Source: Escherichia coli (GTDB lineage Bacteria; Pseudomonadota; Gammaproteobacteria; Enterobacterales; Enterobacteriaceae). From it: a stretch of 64,000 nucleotides of DNA. The notes under the pieces were generated by a model. The model was not told where the DNA came from. It saw only the letters and a list, made by a program, of their open reading frames with translations, and searched no databases. The translations under genes and the position numbers were made by a program. Of this stretch, positions 12,930 through 49,136 are shown one piece after another. Each line of letters opens with the position of its first letter. The stretch's first letter is position 1. The stretch lies in assembly GCF_024298765.1 (NCBI RefSeq), contig NZ_CP101210.1; one strand, 5' to 3'.

Positions 12930-13583
12930 TTATATCCCTTCTTCACTCTCTTTTTTCGCTTCTGCCTTCTCGATTTCACGATACCAGCGCGGATGGTGTT
13001 TCTTCGCCCAGCGACGGCTCACCTTCCCTTCGATCATCCCTTTAATCGATCCTTTCACCCAGAATGCCATATACATATGGATCAGGATGGCGTGGATCAG
13101 GATGATACCCGCAGCCGCATGGATCAGCAGGCTATAACGGACAACCTGTATCGGGAAGTACTGCGCAAAGTACGGACGCCAGATAATCACCCCGGTCACC
13201 AGCAGCACGAAAATCATGCTCATGATCGACCAGAACATCATCTTTTGCCCGGCGTTGTACTTACCGACATCCGCCACTTTATGCTCATTGCCTTTCAATA
13301 CTTCGACAATGTTCAACAGCCACGGAATATCTTTCTTATCCGGGATGTTGTGATGCACAAAACGCACAAACATAAACATCAGTGCGACGAAAATCGCAAT
13401 GCCGAAGAACGGGTGCAAAATGCGTCCCATCTGCGGCGTACCGAAGGTTTGCGTCAGCCATTGCAGCGTCGGGAAGAAGAACGAAATCCCGGACAGCGCC
13501 ACCAGGAAGAAGCAAATCACCACGGTCCAGTGACAGGCGCGATCAATAAATTTGGTGCGCACAATCATTTTCGACTTACTCAT
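12930..13583 (-). CDS. fdnI: Formate dehydrogenase-N cytochrome b556 gamma subunit
   Basis: 217-aa product from the ATG at 13583 ([19 protein letters not shown]...); 4-TM heme-binding subunit. Confidence 0.9.
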
Positions 13584-18905: not shown

Positions 18906-20294
18906 ATGGCACTGCAAAATGAGAAAAATAGTCGTTATCTTTTACGCGACTGGAAACCAGAAAATCCGGCCTTCTGGGAAAATAAAGGAAAGCACATTGC
19001 ACGAAGAAACCTCTGGATATCAGTCAGTTGTCTACTTCTTGCCTTCTGTGTCTGGATGCTATTTAGCGCAGTTACTGTTAATCTCAATAAAATCGGTTTT
19101 AATTTCACTACCGATCAACTCTTTTTATTAACCGCATTACCCTCCGTTTCTGGCGCATTATTGCGTGTCCCCTACTCCTTTATGGTGCCTATATTCGGTG
19201 GACGCCGATGGACGGTTTTTAGTACTGCAATCCTGATTATTCCTTGCGTCTGGCTCGGAATTGCCGTGCAAAATCCGAATACCCCTTTTGGGATATTTAT
19301 CGTTATCGCTTTGCTATGCGGTTTTGCAGGTGCGAACTTTGCTTCGAGCATGGGCAATATCAGTTTCTTCTTTCCAAAAGCCAAACAAGGGAGCGCTCTT
19401 GGGATTAATGGCGGATTAGGAAACTTAGGTGTAAGTGTGATGCAGCTGGTTGCACCGCTGGTCATTTTTGTCCCCGTATTTGCCTTTCTCGGCGTCAATG
19501 GCGTACCGCAGGCCGACGGTTCGGTGATGTCGCTGGCGAATGCCGCATGGATTTGGGTGCCATTACTGGCGATTGCCACGATCGCCGCCTGGTCAGGGAT
19601 GAATGATATCGCCAGTTCACGCGCCTCAATTGCCGACCAGCTGCCAGTGTTACAACGCCTGCATCTCTGGCTGCTGAGCCTGCTTTACCTTGCCACCTTC
19701 GGTTCGTTTATCGGTTTTTCTGCGGGTTTTGCCATGCTGGCGAAAACTCAGTTCCCTGATGTGAATATTCTGCGCCTGGCGTTCTTTGGCCCATTTATTG
19801 GTGCCATCGCGCGGTCGGTTGGTGGTGCTATTTCCGATAAATTCGGCGGCGTGCGGGTGACGTTGATCAACTTTATTTTTATGGCGATTTTCAGCGCCCT
19901 GCTGTTCCTTACCTTACCGGGCACAGGCTCCGGTAATTTCATCGCATTTTACGCCGTATTTATGGGGTTGTTTCTGACCGCAGGTCTGGGAAGTGGTTCT
20001 ACTTTCCAGATGATCGCCGTCATCTTTCGCCAGATAACCATTTATCGGGTGAAGATGAAAGGCGGTAGTGATGAGCAAGCTCAGAGAGAAGCCGTCACCG
20101 AAACGGCGGCGGCTCTGGGCTTTATCTCAGCCATTGGCGCAGTGGGCGGCTTTTTCATTCCGCAGGCGTTTGGCATGTCGCTCAATATGACCGGCTCTCC
20201 GGTGGGCGCGATGAAAGTGTTTTTAATCTTCTACATCGTTTGTGTGCTGCTGACCTGGCTGGTTTATGGTCGGCGGAAGTTCAGCCAAAAATAA
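18906..20294 (+). CDS. narU: Nitrate/nitrite transporter (MFS, NarK family)
   Basis: 462-aa product from the ATG at 18906 (MALQNEKNSRYLLRDWKPENPAFWEN...); MFS membrane protein upstream of narZYWV. Confidence 0.9.
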   Translation: MALQNEKNSRYLLRDWKPENPAFWENKGKHIARRNLWISVSCLLLAFCVWMLFSAVTVNLNKIGFNFTTDQLFLLTALPSVSGALLRVPYSFMVPIFGGRRWTVFSTAILIIPCVWLGIAVQNPNTPFGIFIVIALLCGFAGANFASSMGNISFFFPKAKQGSALGINGGLGNLGVSVMQLVAPLVIFVPVFAFLGVNGVPQADGSVMSLANAAWIWVPLLAIATIAAWSGMNDIASSRASIADQLPVLQRLHLWLLSLLYLATFGSFIGFSAGFAMLAKTQFPDVNILRLAFFGPFIGAIARSVGGAISDKFGGVRVTLINFIFMAIFSALLFLTLPGTGSGNFIAFYAVFMGLFLTAGLGSGSTFQMIAVIFRQITIYRVKMKGGSDEQAQREAVTETAAALGFISAIGAVGGFFIPQAFGMSLNMTGSPVGAMKVFLIFYIVCVLLTWLVYGRRKFSQK

Positions 20295-39578: not shown

Positions 39579-40031
39579 TTAATTCGTCCCGGCTTCCTGC
39601 CGCATCCTGAAGCGCAGATTCTTTTTAATTTCAGCCCAGCGCGTCATATCTGCCGGGGTCAGCGGTGTGGTTCGGGCGTAGGTGAAGGCCATCATGACCC
39701 GCTCACCCGGCAATACAAATGCCACCTGACACTGGTACACCTGCTCGTTACCCCGGAGAAACTGGCTCTGTATTTCCAGTCCTTCTTCACCGTCATTAAT
39801 CCCCACCCGTGTTACCTGAACGGGCGTGTAGTGAAGATCCTTTACCTGTTTCTCCAGTTTTTTCATTTGCTGTTCAATCTGGGAGGCTAATTCGTCTCCT
39901 TCCTGCATCTGGCCCCGGCTGATAATGAGTGCAGCGTCGGGATCGCTGAGGCGCAGCATATTAATAGTACTGTCCTGAATAATATTCCCGGAAAAAGTTA
40001 CAACAGTTTCATTGAGATAATACTCCGTCAT
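39579..40031 (-). CDS. DUF1795 (Eag-family) effector chaperone
   Basis: 150-aa ORF immediately upstream of the prePAAR Rhs gene; size and position typical of Eag chaperones. Confidence 0.7.
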   Translation of the reverse strand: MTEYYLNETVVTFSGNIIQDSTINMLRLSDPDAALIISRGQMQEGDELASQIEQQMKKLEKQVKDLHYTPVQVTRVGINDGEEGLEIQSQFLRGNEQVYQCQVAFVLPGERVMMAFTYARTTPLTPADMTRWAEIKKNLRFRMRQEAGTN

Positions 40032-40081
40032 AATGATATGAGTCCTTTTAAATTAATAAATTATTTAATGATGGTTTTTGT

Positions 40082-42076
40082 TTATTTTTTAGTCATGAAG
40101 GCGACATCTATCGCCAATTGAAGGGCTGTTTTTTCCGATGTTCCTGGCGGAAGTATATCTGCCGCCCTGTTATTCATATTTAAATCAAGCTGACCTGATT
40201 GTGTATTTATCTTTCCATTTTCTGTTGCAGTAATATTAAAATTCTTACAGGTTATATTAAATATTCCGTCACTGGTCATTTGCAGGATAGTGTTCCCACA
40301 ACTAAGAATTATGGAATCTCCCGCAGCAAGGCGTAAATTCTGTACGGCCTGAATCGTTTTATTTTGTCCGGCAAGGGAGGTATCATCCATCTGAACTGTA
40401 AGAGAACGTTCCTCACCAATTATCGCTGTTTCTGTTTTATCAATGACTTTAAGGCGATTATTGCCCACCCAGTGGCTTTCATTATTATTTACTTCAATGC
40501 GTTGATCTTTCTCGGCATGCAACCAGATTTCTTCTCCGCCAGTTTTATCCTCAAAACGCAAGGCGTTAGCATTGGTCGGGCCGCCGCCGATAGTGTGGCT
40601 GTAAAACCCGCTTTGCGTCGCTGCGCCCGGTAGTCCCCACGGTGGCATGGTGTCCTGATTGTAGGTACGCCCAACGATTATCGGTAAATCCGGATCACCG
40701 TTTTTGAAATCCACCAGTACTTCCTGACCAATGCGCGGGATCTGAATGCCACCGAATCCTTTACCCGCCCACGGATAACTGACACGGACCCAGCAGGAAC
40801 TATTTTCGTCATTCTTACCGTAACGATCCCAGCCAAACTGAACTTTCACCCGGCCATATTTATCTGTCCAGATTTCCTGCCCTGCCGGGCCGGTGACGAT
40901 GGCGCTCTGCGGGCCTTTAGTGTGGGGTTTGCTCAGGGTTCGTTGTGGGCGGTAAACTTCGCTGGTGGGATGCAGTTCAAAGCTGGTTGAGTAAGAGAAA
41001 TGCTGCTCCTGGCCGCTGTGTTGCGCATTGTCCTGTATAAATAGCGTGGTCTGTACCAGCAGATATTCCCGGTTCACTTCGGCTGTCGGATAGTTTTCCA
41101 GGGTGAAGGTAAAACCTGTCATCAGGGTACGAATATTGCCGCTGCCCTGTACCCGACTACCTGGGCTACGCTGTTCTTCCATGCGAATGCGTGTCAGCAT
41201 TTCACCTTCACTCTTTGTGAAGTAATCTCCCGGCCATTCGTAGTGCTCATATTCAGCAAGGCCGGTTTCACGCGGATTAGCCACGGTGCTCTTCAGCAGT
41301 GAACGCGGCTTCATAAAGTCGAAATCATTCAGCACCCACTGTCCGCTGCGCAGACTTTCATTTGCTGTGATGGTATGGATAAACTCCTTGTCCAGTTTCA
41401 GCCCTTTCTGGTAATAACACACCAGCGGCGAATCTGCGCATGCCTTGTGGACATTAATGGCATCAGCCAGCACTAACGTGTGACTGTTCTCGCTGTGCTC
41501 AAACCACCAGTAGATACCCCACTCCTGCATCAGGCGCTGAACAAAATCGAAATCTGTTTCACCGTACTGCACCTGCCAGGCGCGAGTCGGATAATTTTCC
41601 ACCAGTCGTTTTTCCACTGGCCAGGGGTACTCATCCAGTACCTCATCCAGGATCTCCACCACGTTTTTATTCTGAAACGCTTTGTAGTCACTAGTGTGGG
41701 TCAGTATTTTTAACCACGGTTCGAGCCGCAGTTCATACACCACCGAACGTCCTTGATGACCAGCCACGCGTGCCGCCGTCACCAGCCCGCTGATATAACG
41801 TTTTCCGCCGCCATCCAATTCGATATTGACGCACAGATCTTTGCCCACCATCGGTTTGAGCTGCAGGTTGGCTGCGGGGGAAACATAGCCCAGGTTCAGG
41901 ATGTCAGGAGTTTTTAATTTAATAGAATAAGTAAATAGTTCCCCTACTGTTTCTGTACCCCCTAAGCTTGCAAACAGTAACATTCCATCAGGAACTGCGC
42001 TGCCGCTCAAAGTCACGTTATGTGTACCCGATCCAGTTAGTGCGCCGGATGGATAATCTGTAGCTGCAAAACTCAT
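40082..42076 (-). CDS. vgrG: Type VI secretion spike protein VgrG
   Basis: 664-aa ORF; gp27/gp5-like architecture; directly precedes the Eag-Rhs genes. Confidence 0.85.
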
Positions 42077-42297
42077 AATTAATCCTTTTAACTAGAAATG
42101 GATAAGTGCTAATAAGAAATCTTACAGAGAATAAAATATGCAATATATTCGTAGCTGGCATAAAACATCTCAATACTTATGCGTGCTACTGAAGATACTA
42201 TCAACCATATATGCCTTGAAGAATGCACCGTCATGTTAACCTGGTGGAAACATTCACCTAAAGTACATTAATAAAACTAATAAAATTATTTAATTTG

Positions 42298-42654
42298 TTA
42301 TTTGATATGATTATCATCAAGTCTTAAAATACGTTCTCCGGTTCTAATTATGCTAAAACCATAGTATTCTTTTTTACTTCCGGAAGAGAGCATATATTTC
42401 CCTATATACATAACATCTGAAGATAGCTCACTTATATCAATACATACGGGTTCGAACTGACCTGTCACTCTTTTCAACTTTATTGCATTGCCATATTTAC
42501 CTTCATATAAAACATAATTTGAAATAATATTCCCATCGTCTGGTTTTGAACAAATCTGTCCGTCTTGCAAATATACACTACCGGGTAACAATGGGCGAAC
42601 ATAATCACCAACAGTGCATCCCGACAAAAAGAAAAACAAAAAGAATCTCTTCAT
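42298..42654 (-). CDS. Small lipoprotein of unknown function (candidate immunity protein)
   Basis: 118-aa ORF; signal peptide with lipobox FLSGC; AT-rich; start overlaps the stop of the upstream HExxH gene (ATGA). Confidence 0.6.
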   Translation of the reverse strand: MKRFFLFFFLSGCTVGDYVRPLLPGSVYLQDGQICSKPDDGNIISNYVLYEGKYGNAIKLKRVTGQFEPVCIDISELSSDVMYIGKYMLSSGSKKEYYGFSIIRTGERILRLDDNHIK

Positions 42655-43220
42655 ATGACACCCGCAGGAAATAAATTAAGCACCTTTTTGTATTTTTCCG
42701 ATAGAGTGTTCACTGATTCAGTTGTATCACCTACATAGTTAACATTTGCCAAATCAGCCACCAGTCCATAGTTAATTAATAGCCAATAATCAACAACTAT
42801 AGATGCTTGTTGTTCCATGGAATAAGAAGAAATTGACTGTAAATTAAGATCGTAATGATAATTTGCCGCCCAAGAAAATAAACCACGCAACTTAACTGCA
42901 TACCCTTTCTGATATTGCCAAACATGCATCATTTCATGAATAAACAAGTGAGAAGCACCTGCTACTGTTTCACGATCACCAGGCATTGCTTGCGATGAAT
43001 AATCTGAACTATAAACAGCATCAGGATAATACATTTCCCCGTTTGGGGTCATCGCTGTTCTTTCCCCTTGACCAGGCAAATATTTTTCATTGTGGATCCA
43101 TACCTTGCTATAATCAATTGTATTCTCAAAAATCGATCTGGCCAATGTTAATTCACCAGATGTCATTCTCCTTAATGACATATCCTTTCCCCTGGAAATA
43201 ATATCTTTCAGATAAAACAC
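42651..43220 (-). CDS. Cysteine-free HExxH zincin-like protein (candidate T6SS cargo effector)
   Basis: 189-aa ORF (alternative start at Met14, position 43181); single HEMMH motif within ASHLFIHEMMHVWQYQ; no signal peptide; AT-rich; translationally coupled to the lipoprotein gene. Confidence 0.55.
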   Translation of the reverse strand: MFYLKDIISRGKDMSLRRMTSGELTLARSIFENTIDYSKVWIHNEKYLPGQGERTAMTPNGEMYYPDAVYSSDYSSQAMPGDRETVAGASHLFIHEMMHVWQYQKGYAVKLRGLFSWAANYHYDLNLQSISSYSMEQQASIVVDYWLLINYGLVADLANVNYVGDTTESVNTLSEKYKKVLNLFPAGVI

Positions 43221-44118
43221 AAACGCCCTTTGATGTTCAATATTCCCACTTTATACAGTATTGATGACATCATCTTCATAGAAAATAAAATCAAAGCAAG
43301 TTATCAACGTTTCCCGTTATGATTTCTTAACATTAATTCTCAGCATTTTTATTAATCTATCTTCAATATCAATAACCGATGCAAATGATTACGCAGCTAA
43401 CATAATTCTCATCAATTGATTAATATCTGTAAACGCTACCGCCCCACCCTGATATCTTAATCTGCACATAGCAATCTTAACGTTATGCCCCATACATTAG
43501 TAATGTAAATTAAGAATTCGGAATATATCAAATTCACTTCATAAATTAATATCGGGAATGATATACACATTAATTATATTGAAGTAATGTTTTAAGAGTT
43601 GTAATGACCATGGAACAGGACTAATTCCAGAAACTCCTGTTGGGCAATAGCGCGTTTATCATCCTACATGCCTCTTACATTTTTTAGCCTTTTCTTTAAC
43701 GTCAGCAATTGGCTCATTTAATCAGCAATGGTATTGGTATTTGGCGTATTACCCCTGAAACCCGTCATGTGCTAGCACCTCACTATTCAATGAGCCAACC
43801 ACGCCAGTGTCCACTGCAACCACTGGCGTTCAGAGCGACGAACGAGTGGCGCAAGAGTAGGACTGCCGTCGGGCATCATCAAACCAATAGTGGTTGTTTC
43901 CGTCAAAATTTCATCAGGTTGCTATTTGGTTGCCGGCCGCCTTTATCCCCACATATTTATAGCGGGATTATTTTGCATCGTTACACGATAAAAGGTAGGA
44001 TTCTGCGCCGACAGTTATACCCATAAAGAATAATGGTGAATCTTGTCATCGCCAGGATGAATAAACATTGTTCATGGCAACTTATATGACTTTTTCATTA
44101 AAGCAATCAGGGAGAGCA

Positions 44119-45730: not shown

Positions 45731-46792
45731 TTACAGCGCAATACGAATCACATCGTCCGGCTGGGTAGCTTCCTGCTGTTTAGTGGATTTTTGTTTCACA
45801 CTGACATACAGCGTTTTGCCATCGGCAGACAGTGCCAGGCTGTTCGGATGAGTCGGCGTATCGAACGTTTTCACCACTTTATAGCTTTTCGCGTCAATCA
45901 CACTGACTTTACCTGCCTGACGATGCGTCACGTAGGCTTCATTACGCGCGGGGTTAAACAGCACAGCCAGTGATTCCGGTGCCGCAACCTTCGCCAGAAT
46001 ATTGCCATTACGGGTATCGACCACTAACACTTCTGCCGCTTTAGAGTCGGTGATAAATGCACGCTGCCTTGCGGTATCAAGGCTGATGTTGATAAAGAAG
46101 TGCTCTTTGCCGTCATCCAGCAGCTTTTTACGGCTGAGGATTTTATTGTCGGCGGTGTCGATGGTAATCAATTCGCCGTCAGCGTTAGTGGTGTAAAGAC
46201 GTTTGCCTTTGCTATCCAGCGCTAAACCGGTACTCATTTTACCGGTGTTCTGGATGGCGGTTTTCAGTTTGATATTCTCGCCATCAACGACCCAAATCAC
46301 GCTCTCTTTACCAATACCACTGATGTAAACGGTGTTCGTGGCATCGTCTGCCACCAGCTCACGCGGTTGCAGCGGGCGCACCTCTTCAGTGCGCTTACGA
46401 TCATCCAGCACCAGACGGCCTTTCACTTCGCCCGTTTTGGCATCTATCGCCGTGACCGCGCTGTTTACAGTGTTACCAAACCACAACGTCTGAGTCGTGT
46501 TATTGATGGTAGCACCAAACGGCTTGAGATCGTTATGGATCGCCTGCGTCACTTCCAGAGTAACCGGATCAAGACGATAAACCACGCCGCCTTTATCCAG
46601 TTTGCGGCTTTGCGAAGTGGCGAGCCACAGCGCGTTTTCTTGCTGGCTATAAGCCATTTCGTAGGCACCTTTACCTACCGCTTTACGCAGCATTTCTTCT
46701 GCGGCCTGCGTACTGAATGATGAAGCAACAAGCAATGAACCTAACAGTAATGAACCACGCAGGCGCGATGAAAACAGATGACGTAAATGCAT
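45731..46792 (-). CDS. yncE: Periplasmic beta-propeller protein YncE
   Basis: 353-aa ORF with signal peptide and repeated propeller-blade motifs. Confidence 0.9.
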   Translation of the reverse strand: MHLRHLFSSRLRGSLLLGSLLVASSFSTQAAEEMLRKAVGKGAYEMAYSQQENALWLATSQSRKLDKGGVVYRLDPVTLEVTQAIHNDLKPFGATINNTTQTLWFGNTVNSAVTAIDAKTGEVKGRLVLDDRKRTEEVRPLQPRELVADDATNTVYISGIGKESVIWVVDGENIKLKTAIQNTGKMSTGLALDSKGKRLYTTNADGELITIDTADNKILSRKKLLDDGKEHFFINISLDTARQRAFITDSKAAEVLVVDTRNGNILAKVAAPESLAVLFNPARNEAYVTHRQAGKVSVIDAKSYKVVKTFDTPTHPNSLALSADGKTLYVSVKQKSTKQQEATQPDDVIRIAL

Positions 46793-46866
46793 GACGACTC
46801 CCTTTGATGAACCGATATTTTTGCTGCTTCACAATGCTTCGCTAAGCGTAATCATCGTTACGCTCT

Positions 46867-46885
46867 TGTTATAAATGGGAATGGT
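46867..46885. promoter_or_regulatory. Fur box in the yncE-yncD divergent promoter region
   Basis: gggaatggtaatcattatt matches GATAATGATAATCATTATC at about 15 of 19 positions, 75 to 95 bp upstream of yncE; consistent with known iron regulation of yncE. Confidence 0.6.
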
Positions 46886-47033
46886 AATCATTATTTTCTC
46901 AAATGTGGAGCATTTCTTGCCGTTACGACTACAATTTTCTCAATTACTTAACATATCGTGCCGTTTCGTTTTCCATAAATTTACAATTTTATTACCATGA
47001 CGGTGTTTTCCCATTCTTAACCTGGCTTTTTTC

Positions 47034-49136
47034 ATGAAGATTTTTTCCGTCCGACAGACCGTTTTTCCCGCGCTGCTTGTCCTTTCCCCCACCGTTTTTG
47101 CCGCTGATGAACAGACCATGATTGTCAGTGCCGCGCCGCAGGTGATTTCAGAACTGGATACCCCAGCAGCCGTGAGCGTGGTGGATGGCGAGGAGATGCG
47201 CCTGGCAACACCGCGCATTAACTTGTCTGAATCACTGACTGGCGTGCCTGGTTTGCAGGTACAAAACCGGCAGAACTATGCGCAAGATTTACAGCTGTCG
47301 ATTCGCGGATTTGGCTCCCGCTCCACTTACGGAATTCGCGGTATTCGCCTGTATGTTGACGGTATTCCCGCTACCATGCCCGACGGACAAGGGCAGACAT
47401 CCAATATCGATTTAAGCAGTGTGCAAAATGTGGAAGTGCTGCGTGGCCCCTTCTCTGCTCTGTATGGCAACGCGTCTGGCGGTGTAATGAATGTCATCAC
47501 CCAGACCGGACAACAGCCACCAACCATTGAAGCCAGTAGTTACTACGGCAGTTTTGGCAGCTGGCGCTATGGGCTGAAAGCAACGGGCGCAACGGGAGAC
47601 GGCACACAGCCAGGCGATGTCGATTACACCGTCTCAACCACGCGCTTTACGACCCACGGCTATCGTGATCATAGTGGCGCACAGAAAAATTTAGCCAATG
47701 CCAAACTGGGCGTTCGCATTGATGACGCCAGCAAATTAAGCCTGATTTTCAATAGTGTGGATATCAAAGCAGATGACCCAGGTGGGCTAACCGAAGCAGA
47801 ATGGAAGGCGAATCCACAACAAGCGCCCCGTGCAGAACAGTACGACACGCGAAAAACCATCAAGCAAACTCAGGCTGGGTTGCGCTATGAACGTAGCCTG
47901 AGCGCGCAAGATGATATGAGTGTAATGATGTATGCCGGAGAGCGAGAAACGACCCAGTACCAGTCAATCCCCATGTCCCCGCAACTTAACCCGTCACATG
48001 CGGGCGGCGTGATTACCCTGCAACGCCATTACCAGGGGATAGACAGCCGCTGGACACACCGTGGTGAATTGGGCGTTCCAGTCACGTTCACAACCGGCCT
48101 GAACTACGAAAACATGAGTGAAAACCGCAAGGGTTACAATAACTTCCGCCTGAATCGCGGCGTGCCGGAATACGGGCAAAAAGGTGAGTTGCGCCGCGAC
48201 GAACGCAATTTGATGTGGAACGTCGATCCCTATTTACAAACCCAGTGGCAACTGACCGACAAACTTTCGCTGGATGCTGGCGTGCGCTACAGCTCTGTGT
48301 GGTTTGATTCCAATGATCATTACGTTACTCCGGGTAACGGCGACGACAGCGGTGATGCCAGTTATCACAAATGGCTACCAGCCGGATCGTTAAAATATGC
48401 AATGACCGATGCCTGGAATGTCTATCTGGCAGCCGGGCGCGGTTTTGAAACGCCGACGATTAATGAGCTGTCTTATCGCGCTGATGGGCAAAGCGGTATG
48501 AACTTTGGTTTAAAACCCTCCACCAACGATACAATTGAGATCGGCAGTAAAACGCGTATTGGTGATGGGCTGCTTAGTCTCGCATTGTTCCAGACCGACA
48601 CCGATGATGAAATTGTTGTCGATAGCAGTAGCGGTGGGCGTACGACTTACAAAAATGCCGGAAAGACCCGTCGTCAAGGCGCTGAACTGGCATGGGATCA
48701 ACGTTTCGCGGGAGATTTTCGCGTAAAAGCGTCCTGGACCTGGCTTGATGCGACCTATCGCAGCAATGTTTGCAATGAACAGGATTGTAACGGTAACCGG
48801 ATGCCAGGGATCGCCCGTAATATGGGCTTTGCGTCGATAGGTTATGTACCGGAAGATGGCTGGTATGCAGGTACGGAAGCGCGTTATATGGGCGATATTA
48901 TGGCAGATGATGAAAATACGGCCAAAGCGCCGTCTTATACTCTCGTCGGCTTATTCACCGGGTATAAATACAATTACCACAATTTAACTGTGGATTTATT
49001 TGGTCGTGTCGATAATTTATTCGATAAAGAATACGTTGGCTCTGTCATTGTCAATGAGTCAAACGGGCGATATTACGAACCTGCGCCCGGGCGAAATTAT
49101 GGTGTCGGCATGAATATTGCGTGGCGATTTGAGTAA
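47034..49136 (+). CDS. yncD: TonB-dependent outer-membrane receptor
   Basis: 700-aa ORF; signal peptide, plug and beta-barrel regions, C-terminal aromatic residue (WRFE). Confidence 0.9.
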   Translation: MKIFSVRQTVFPALLVLSPTVFAADEQTMIVSAAPQVISELDTPAAVSVVDGEEMRLATPRINLSESLTGVPGLQVQNRQNYAQDLQLSIRGFGSRSTYGIRGIRLYVDGIPATMPDGQGQTSNIDLSSVQNVEVLRGPFSALYGNASGGVMNVITQTGQQPPTIEASSYYGSFGSWRYGLKATGATGDGTQPGDVDYTVSTTRFTTHGYRDHSGAQKNLANAKLGVRIDDASKLSLIFNSVDIKADDPGGLTEAEWKANPQQAPRAEQYDTRKTIKQTQAGLRYERSLSAQDDMSVMMYAGERETTQYQSIPMSPQLNPSHAGGVITLQRHYQGIDSRWTHRGELGVPVTFTTGLNYENMSENRKGYNNFRLNRGVPEYGQKGELRRDERNLMWNVDPYLQTQWQLTDKLSLDAGVRYSSVWFDSNDHYVTPGNGDDSGDASYHKWLPAGSLKYAMTDAWNVYLAAGRGFETPTINELSYRADGQSGMNFGLKPSTNDTIEIGSKTRIGDGLLSLALFQTDTDDEIVVDSSSGGRTTYKNAGKTRRQGAELAWDQRFAGDFRVKASWTWLDATYRSNVCNEQDCNGNRMPGIARNMGFASIGYVPEDGWYAGTEARYMGDIMADDENTAKAPSYTLVGLFTGYKYNYHNLTVDLFGRVDNLFDKEYVGSVIVNESNGRYYEPAPGRNYGVGMNIAWRFE

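Follow-up and report, generated by a model that had tools for sequence, protein, structure and literature searches.

Fur boxes in short divergent spacers are well described for the enterobactin operators fepA-fes, fepD-entS and fepB-entC, which score 18-24 bits (leave-one-out) with the Fur matrix used below and where both divergent units are derepressed in fur mutants. One Zur box, the site of a Fur-family repressor, likewise lies in the divergent spacer of znuA/znuCB, where back-to-back promoters are placed over that single box. At the post-transcriptional level, cirA and shiA are activated by RyhB, cirA being repressed by Fur as well. The Fur operator of yncE (b1452) is itself already known: it has been in the literature since McHugh et al. 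2003, was later reported for MG1655, CFT073 and seven other strains, and is ChIP-confirmed in several strains. Two sources credit McHugh et al. 2003 with both the yncE Fur box and an iron repression of up to 18-fold.

The site analysed here is that same yncE Fur box in another strain of Escherichia coli, and nothing of substance differs between them. As at the enterobactin and znu loci, the box lies in a short spacer between divergent genes. However, only yncE is derepressed here, and unlike in the enterobactin operators the predicted promoter of the other gene, pqqU, has no Fur-like site and is separated from the box by some 75 bp or more. In contrast to the znu arrangement, the two predicted promoters are approximately 130 bp apart and only one of them overlaps the box. 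In being both Fur-repressed and RyhB-activated yncE resembles cirA, whereas its leader, compared with those of cirA and shiA, possesses a separate covarying hairpin in addition.

The genes concerned and the spacer between them are located as follows in the window (the whole 64,000-nucleotide stretch of DNA that was analysed, or 64 kb):

45731..46792, minus strand: yncE, an ORF of 353 aa encoding a periplasmic seven-bladed beta-propeller protein; the regulated gene
46793..47033: the yncE-pqqU intergenic spacer, 241 bp between the divergent ORFs
47034..49136, plus strand: pqqU (yncD), an ORF of 700 aa encoding a TonB-dependent PQQ importer; the divergent neighbour of yncE

The ORF ends agree exactly with the 241-bp spacer (46793..47033) between a beta-propeller gene and a TonB-dependent receptor gene that had been described in an initial annotation of this DNA. 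Pfam family YNCE matches the YncE orthologue, and pqqU is the current name of yncD, whose product imports pyrroloquinoline quinone in a TonB-dependent manner. An 851-bp stretch around the site shows 100% identity to E. coli chicken isolate 104 (NZ_CP029164.1) and 97-98% identity to nearly all of the 5,411 matching complete genomes. Five differences from K-12 occur in the spacer, all of them in its pqqU half (46953..47004), the yncE half being identical; they include positions in the spacer of the predicted pqqU promoter (46990) and in the start region (47004). Further along, beyond ansP (approximately 40000..44000), genes for a type VI secretion Vgr protein and for Rhs-family proteins are found where K-12 has yncG, and this segment marks the boundary of a strain-specific island near the yncE locus.

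The Fur-binding sequence of the spacer comprises the following:

46877..46895: classical 19-bp Fur box, GGGAATGGTAATCATTATT on the plus strand and AATAATGATTACCATTCCC in the yncE sense, matching the consensus at 15 of 19 positions
46874..46899: extended Fur-binding array, consisting of the best matrix register and three overlapping 7-1-7 half-site pairs

The initial annotation had placed the box at 46867..46885, which is wrong by exactly 10; GGGAATGGTAATCATTATT occurs a single time in the 64-kb window and lies to the right, at 46877..46895. The annotation's estimate of about 15 of 19 consensus positions is borne out by counting against GATAATGATAATCATTATC, and no other 19-mer in the 64-kb window, whichever strand is read, reaches this level of agreement. 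A Fur matrix was derived by expectation-maximisation motif search, started from arbitrary seeds, on 16 intergenic regions of K-12 whose repression by Fur is well established (fepA-fes, fepD-entS, fepB-entC, fhuA, fiu, fhuE, tonB, cirA, exbB, feoA, fecI, fhuF-yjjZ, ryhB, sufA, nrdH and bfd), with yncE left out. All six best seeds arrived at AATGAtAATgATTATCATT, the Fur motif. Scoring against background with such a matrix, which had been proposed as a check, gives 19.6 bits for the yncE-spacer site (register 46874..46892), the top score of the window; the next best match, at the narU start codon, reaches 13.6 bits and the rest of the spacer at most 6.5. Scored leave-one-out, the 16 genuine sites span 5.1 to 27.4 bits (median 20.5), and the yncE site stands above seven of them, a mid-range value. 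The site is above chance expectation and typical of real Fur boxes. The three 7-1-7 pairs (46876..46890, 10/14; 46882..46896, 11/14; 46885..46899, 10/14) overlap as would be expected if two or more Fur dimers bound there, a number suggested by the half-site pattern. Two further Fur-like matches in the window were rejected as chance, on account of scores no higher than 13.6 bits or agreement at no more than 14 of 19 positions: 18918..18936, at the start codon of narU, and 13209..13227, within fdnI.

A score of 19.6 bits was contained in 12 of 200 first-order-Markov randomised 64-kb windows, corresponding to P of ~0.06 per 64 kb and ~2e-4 per single 241-bp spacer. By itself the motif would fall short of proving function, because an equal score arises in 6% of random 64-kb sequences. 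This frequency, together with four mismatches to the consensus, is what can be said for the site being a chance match, that is, an AT-rich intergenic 19-mer without regulatory role. Against that reading stand the uniqueness of the site, which leads the runner-up of the window by 6 bits, and its invariance across genera at a fixed position; the cited in vivo occupancy and expression data (ChIP and RNA-seq) already refute it, and it is the least probable of the alternatives considered, with a probability that is close to nil.

Conservation of the box was followed in a YncE scan using one genome per species, which yielded 80 loci from approximately 20 enterobacterial genera. At ~75 of these 80 Enterobacteriaceae loci the orthologous box gives the best Fur-matrix match within 300 bp of upstream yncE sequence, and its centre lies 85-95 bp (about 88 bp) from the yncE ATG. 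The E. coli version is a degenerate one, with its four consensus mismatches; the version carried by most other genera, AATGAGAATAGTAATCATT, is nearer the consensus (25.7 bits compared with 19.6). An alignment of the whole spacer from 20 genera shows 14 of 18 box positions to be invariant while the flanks diverge. Within the species, 5,411 out of 5,426 complete E. coli genomes share 95% identity or more over the 60 bp around the box, and the identical 19-mer is found in K-12 (NC_000913.3, 1523204..1523222) and in CFT073 (NC_004431.1, 1711864..1711882).

Fur ChIP-seq of CFT073 has been reported to give a peak with its maximum at 1711868 and a height of 845 (PMC7157518, Tables S5A and S1). Mapped onto NC_004431.1, this maximum falls within the identical 19-mer, 5 bp from its centre. 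RNA-seq of the same strain gave yncE ratios of 147-fold for fur-/wt, 0.93 for ryhB-/wt and 18.4 for fur-ryhB-/wt (PMC7157518, Table S1). Binding of Fur upstream of yncE has also been described in MG1655 (PMC4676285), and yncE is a member of the Fur-1 and Fur-2 iModulons in a nine-strain study of the Fur pan-regulon (PMC10164565). It has further been published that yncE belongs to the core Fur regulon and is up 16-fold under iron limitation. These published ChIP and expression data agree with the statement of the initial annotation that yncE is known to be Fur-regulated. The iron-responsive control that it proposed is upheld for yncE by the matrix score, the conservation across ~20 genera, the ChIP maximum inside the box and the 147-fold derepression in the fur mutant.

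Promoter positions in the spacer are predictions and were obtained by scoring sigma-70-like hexamer pairs in 20 aligned spacers. For yncE, the elements are:

46881..46886, minus strand: predicted yncE -10, TACCAT, within the Fur box
46904..46909, minus strand: predicted yncE -35, TCCACA, in a nearly invariant GCTCCAC(A/T)TT block, with a spacing of 17 bp to the -10

In 13 of 20 genera the pair TCCAC(A/T)-17-TA(C/T)(C/T)AT ranks within the best three predictions and occupies identical alignment columns, while any other promoter position in the yncE direction recurs in at most four. The box overlaps this sole recurrent prediction, covering its spacer, its -10 and the predicted start near 46872..46875. 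Placed over the predicted yncE promoter, the box would have the classical geometry of repression by occlusion, the -35, -10 and start being assigned from aligned hexamers. The covarying leader hairpin at 46845..46864 (described below) implies that transcription starts upstream of 46864, at or beside the box. An alternative -10, TATAAC (46868..46873), is less favoured: the position is AT-rich in many species, yet it is without a plausible -35, and its spacing from the box is variable (by 1-3 nt), whereas the TCCACA-17-TACCAT spacing is invariant. If TATAAC were the -10, the box would lie over the -35 and the spacer, and the functional conclusion would be the same.

As the predicted yncE -10 falls within the box, the conservation might come mainly from the core yncE promoter, or from a MarA/SoxS/Rob site at -41.5 of yncEp, with the likeness to a Fur box due to incidental AT-richness. 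According to one source RegulonDB is without an annotated Fur site at yncEp, and it reportedly annotates MarA there, not Fur; a marbox-like sequence, ACGGCAAGAAATGCTCCACA (46904..46923, minus strand), abuts the box, its likeness being judged by eye only. However, the conserved tract runs over at least 18 contiguous positions in keeping with the Fur matrix, which is much longer than a hexamer, and orthologous boxes move toward the Fur consensus (AATGAGAATAGTAATCATT, 25.7 bits) and not away from it. The maximum of the Fur ChIP peak lies inside the box (CFT073), yncE is massively fur-dependent, and the MarA site gave no footprint in a published reporter study. We consider a promoter or MarA/SoxS/Rob origin of the conservation to be very unlikely, and read the tract as a Fur operator placed over the predicted yncE promoter. 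As to the marbox-like sequence itself, the centre of ACGGCAAGAAATGCTCCACA would be near -41.5 of the predicted yncE start, matching the RegulonDB MarA annotation, which is of low confidence and found no confirmation in the reporter study.

The initial annotation had left it open whether one or both of the divergent genes would respond to the box. The evidence indicates that yncE responds and that yncD/pqqU most likely does not, given the published non-regulation of the latter, its distant predicted promoter and the situation in Citrobacter. The predicted promoter in question is:

46970..46998, plus strand: predicted pqqU promoter, with -35 TTTCCA at 46970..46975, a 17-bp spacer and -10 TACCAT at 46993..46998

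The prediction in the pqqU direction, TT(T)TCA-16/18-TA(A/C)CAT, occurs in the same alignment columns in ~16 of 20 genera. Its -35 begins 75 bp past the end of the Fur box, and the box does not overlap or abut both predicted promoters.

A shared bidirectional operator, in which the one Fur box would repress both yncE and pqqU/yncD in the manner of fepA-fes, fepD-entS and fepB-entC and PQQ uptake would be iron-controlled, has several points in its favour. The box sits in a short 241-bp divergent spacer beside the gene of a TonB-dependent receptor, and seven of the nine TonB-dependent receptors of K-12 are Fur-regulated (PMC7193533). The ChIP table for CFT073 assigns the peak to both yncD_1 and yncE (PMC7157518), simply because the peak lies between the two. 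In a published RyhB pull-down, yncD/yncE were among head-to-head pairs with possible co-purification through overlapping UTRs, and a weak promoter-like match on the plus strand, TTCACA-16-AATCAT (46828..46855), would put the box downstream of the start of a long pqqU transcript; matches of this kind are, however, no commoner than in shuffled sequences. Against shared control, YncD is according to Grinter and Lithgow not under Fur control and not induced when iron is limiting (PMC7193533, with reference to McHugh 2003 and Seo 2014), Hantke and Friz likewise describe YncD/PqqU as not regulated by Fur or iron, and expression of pqqU in P. aeruginosa has been published as not responding to iron. 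The box centre lies ~119 bp upstream of the pqqU start predicted from 46970..46998, and the 130 bp nearest to pqqU contain no Fur-like site in 61 genomes, with scores of 0.2 bits at the median and 12.3 at most.

The arrangement in Citrobacter bears on the same question. At nine loci another gene stands in the place of pqqU, and the box is kept at -88 to -91 from yncE, so that co-inheritance of the box with both genes fails there; homology to relatives containing pqqU stops approximately 165 bp upstream of yncE. The 20-genus alignment shows two conserved halves of the spacer parted by a non-conserved stretch. These halves, the divide between them and the retention of the box without pqqU together indicate that the spacer consists of two independent regulatory modules. 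The pqqU gene is very probably not controlled by the box, promoter positions in the spacer being predicted ones, and a modulating effect of the box on pqqU under other conditions is much less likely than the leader RNA module considered below. Common control of both genes is given a small residual probability because of the co-purification in the RyhB pull-down and because the promoter positions are predicted, and we regard it as improbable.

Several observations on pqqU were made alongside. The nine Citrobacter loci without upstream pqqU are L024, L025, L027, L029, L032, L034, L035, L039 and L093, and at the first of these a gene for a 470-aa hypothetical protein lies upstream of yncE. The relatives listed in a PqqU protein search were all at least 85% identical (Citrobacter koseri, Salmonella), and in C. 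koseri yncE adjoins pqqU. E. albertii (L020) has a short pqqU fragment only, and in CFT073 (L099) pqqU is frameshifted; the gene has been lost, replaced or broken in several lineages in which yncE and the Fur box persist. The pqqU-proximal module (alignment columns 45-130) contains the predicted promoter and the blocks TTGAAAAC and GCACATTnCGTTAA. In most genera ATGTTCCATTTGGTTCG lies between the predicted pqqU -10 and the ATG; Escherichia, Citrobacter and Salmonella have lost this block or have a diverged form of it. The conserved pqqU-proximal blocks are candidate operators for regulators of pqqU.

On the yncE side of the box, two conserved elements were identified in the leader:

46845..46864, minus strand: covarying hairpin AGCGUAA-CGAUGA-UUACGCU in the yncE 5' leader
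46823..46840, minus strand: leader block GAAGCAUUGUGAAGCAGC, complementary to RyhB nucleotides ~40-60 (CAUUGCUCACAUUGCUUCC)

All seven pairs of the hairpin show compensatory changes among 52 sequences, and 95.9% of cells are paired, compared with 32-56% in slid controls. The covariation score was reached by none of 500 shuffles, RNAalifold recovers the hairpin, the minimum-energy fold contains it, and its loop, C(C/G)AUGA, is conserved. G.U pairs occupy 43 cells on the yncE sense strand and 5 on the antisense strand, which identifies the hairpin as a structure of the yncE leader RNA and not as a DNA palindrome or a plus-strand terminator. No Rfam family match was found in 46700..47100, and no description of the hairpin was found in the published work on yncE, Fur and RyhB that was examined.

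Three other readings of this region were rejected. A terminator-like match on the plus strand near 46828..46864 is the leader hairpin seen on the wrong strand and is no commoner than in shuffles; the T-run that follows it is absent in other genera. An upstream ORF starting from the AUG of the hairpin loop was discarded, as several sequences from Escherichia and Salmonella have AAG in its place. A long-range pairing between the RNA of the Fur box and the Shine-Dalgarno sequence, proposed by RNAalifold, shows no compensatory changes and needs a transcription start upstream of the box.

Activation of yncE by RyhB is established, with published support from ribosome profiling, from a yncE-lacZ fusion that is higher with RyhB, and from RIL-seq and a quantitative model. 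The fall from 147-fold in fur- to 18-fold in fur-ryhB- in CFT073 supports this activation, and with the box it means that Fur controls yncE both directly and indirectly through RyhB. The published RyhB work examined gave no description of a pairing site or mechanism for yncE. Using the single-stranded core of RyhB only, a duplex of -20 to -33 kcal/mol with the leader block is predicted at the homologous position in ~50 species (mean z -3 against shuffles); unrestricted folding of RyhB with the leader was discarded, as it gave an unrealistic full-length duplex. Judging from this complementarity, the block at 46823..46840 is likely where RyhB pairs to activate yncE. The minimum-energy leader fold has the RyhB block paired around the Shine-Dalgarno region (z = -0.9, not statistically distinguished), a modelled pairing that hints at an anti-antisense mechanism.

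Both leader elements are deleted at three loci from Pseudescherichia and relatives (L045, L051 and L053), and here the Fur box is at approximately -46 to -50 from the yncE ATG. By their sequence, these deletion loci should represent a natural variant without RyhB control.

Taken as a whole, we hold with high confidence that the 19-mer is a genuine Fur operator of the yncE promoter that acts on yncE only. Motif quality, conservation, occupancy by Fur in vivo and the dependence of yncE on Fur, iron and RyhB have been shown, in this analysis or in the cited work; the exact hexamers and start site, the occlusion and the dimer number are inferred. The degenerate form of the E. coli box, the frequency of equal scores in random sequence, the alternative -10 and the reported lack of a RegulonDB entry do not contradict control of yncE by Fur. 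In iron-replete cells, Fe2+-Fur dimers, probably two or more, would occupy approximately 46874..46899 on the overlapping 7-1-7 units. The DNA so covered would include the predicted yncE -10, the promoter spacer and the start region, so that RNA polymerase would be excluded by occlusion and yncE would be off. When iron is scarce, Fur would depart and yncE would be transcribed. Loss of Fur would also derepress RyhB, which may then pair with the conserved block of the yncE leader and raise yncE further, and the two regulators would thereby form a coherent feed-forward loop on yncE. The pqqU gene would be served by its own promoter module in the opposite half of the spacer. More tentatively, as a plausible reading of which we are rather less than convinced, the hairpin followed by the RyhB block may constitute an undescribed cis-regulatory RNA module in which RyhB pairing relieves an inhibitory fold or stabilises the mRNA, the box being one arm of a Fur-RyhB-yncE feed-forward loop that extends across the Enterobacteriaceae.

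The iron signal at this locus thus acts on yncE and, very probably, not on pqqU. Such one-sided control agrees with PqqU serving in PQQ import and not in iron transport. It also cautions that a Fur box beside the gene of a TonB-dependent receptor does not imply that the receptor is an iron transporter. The leader hairpin and the block complementary to RyhB offer a concrete handle on the activation of yncE by RyhB.
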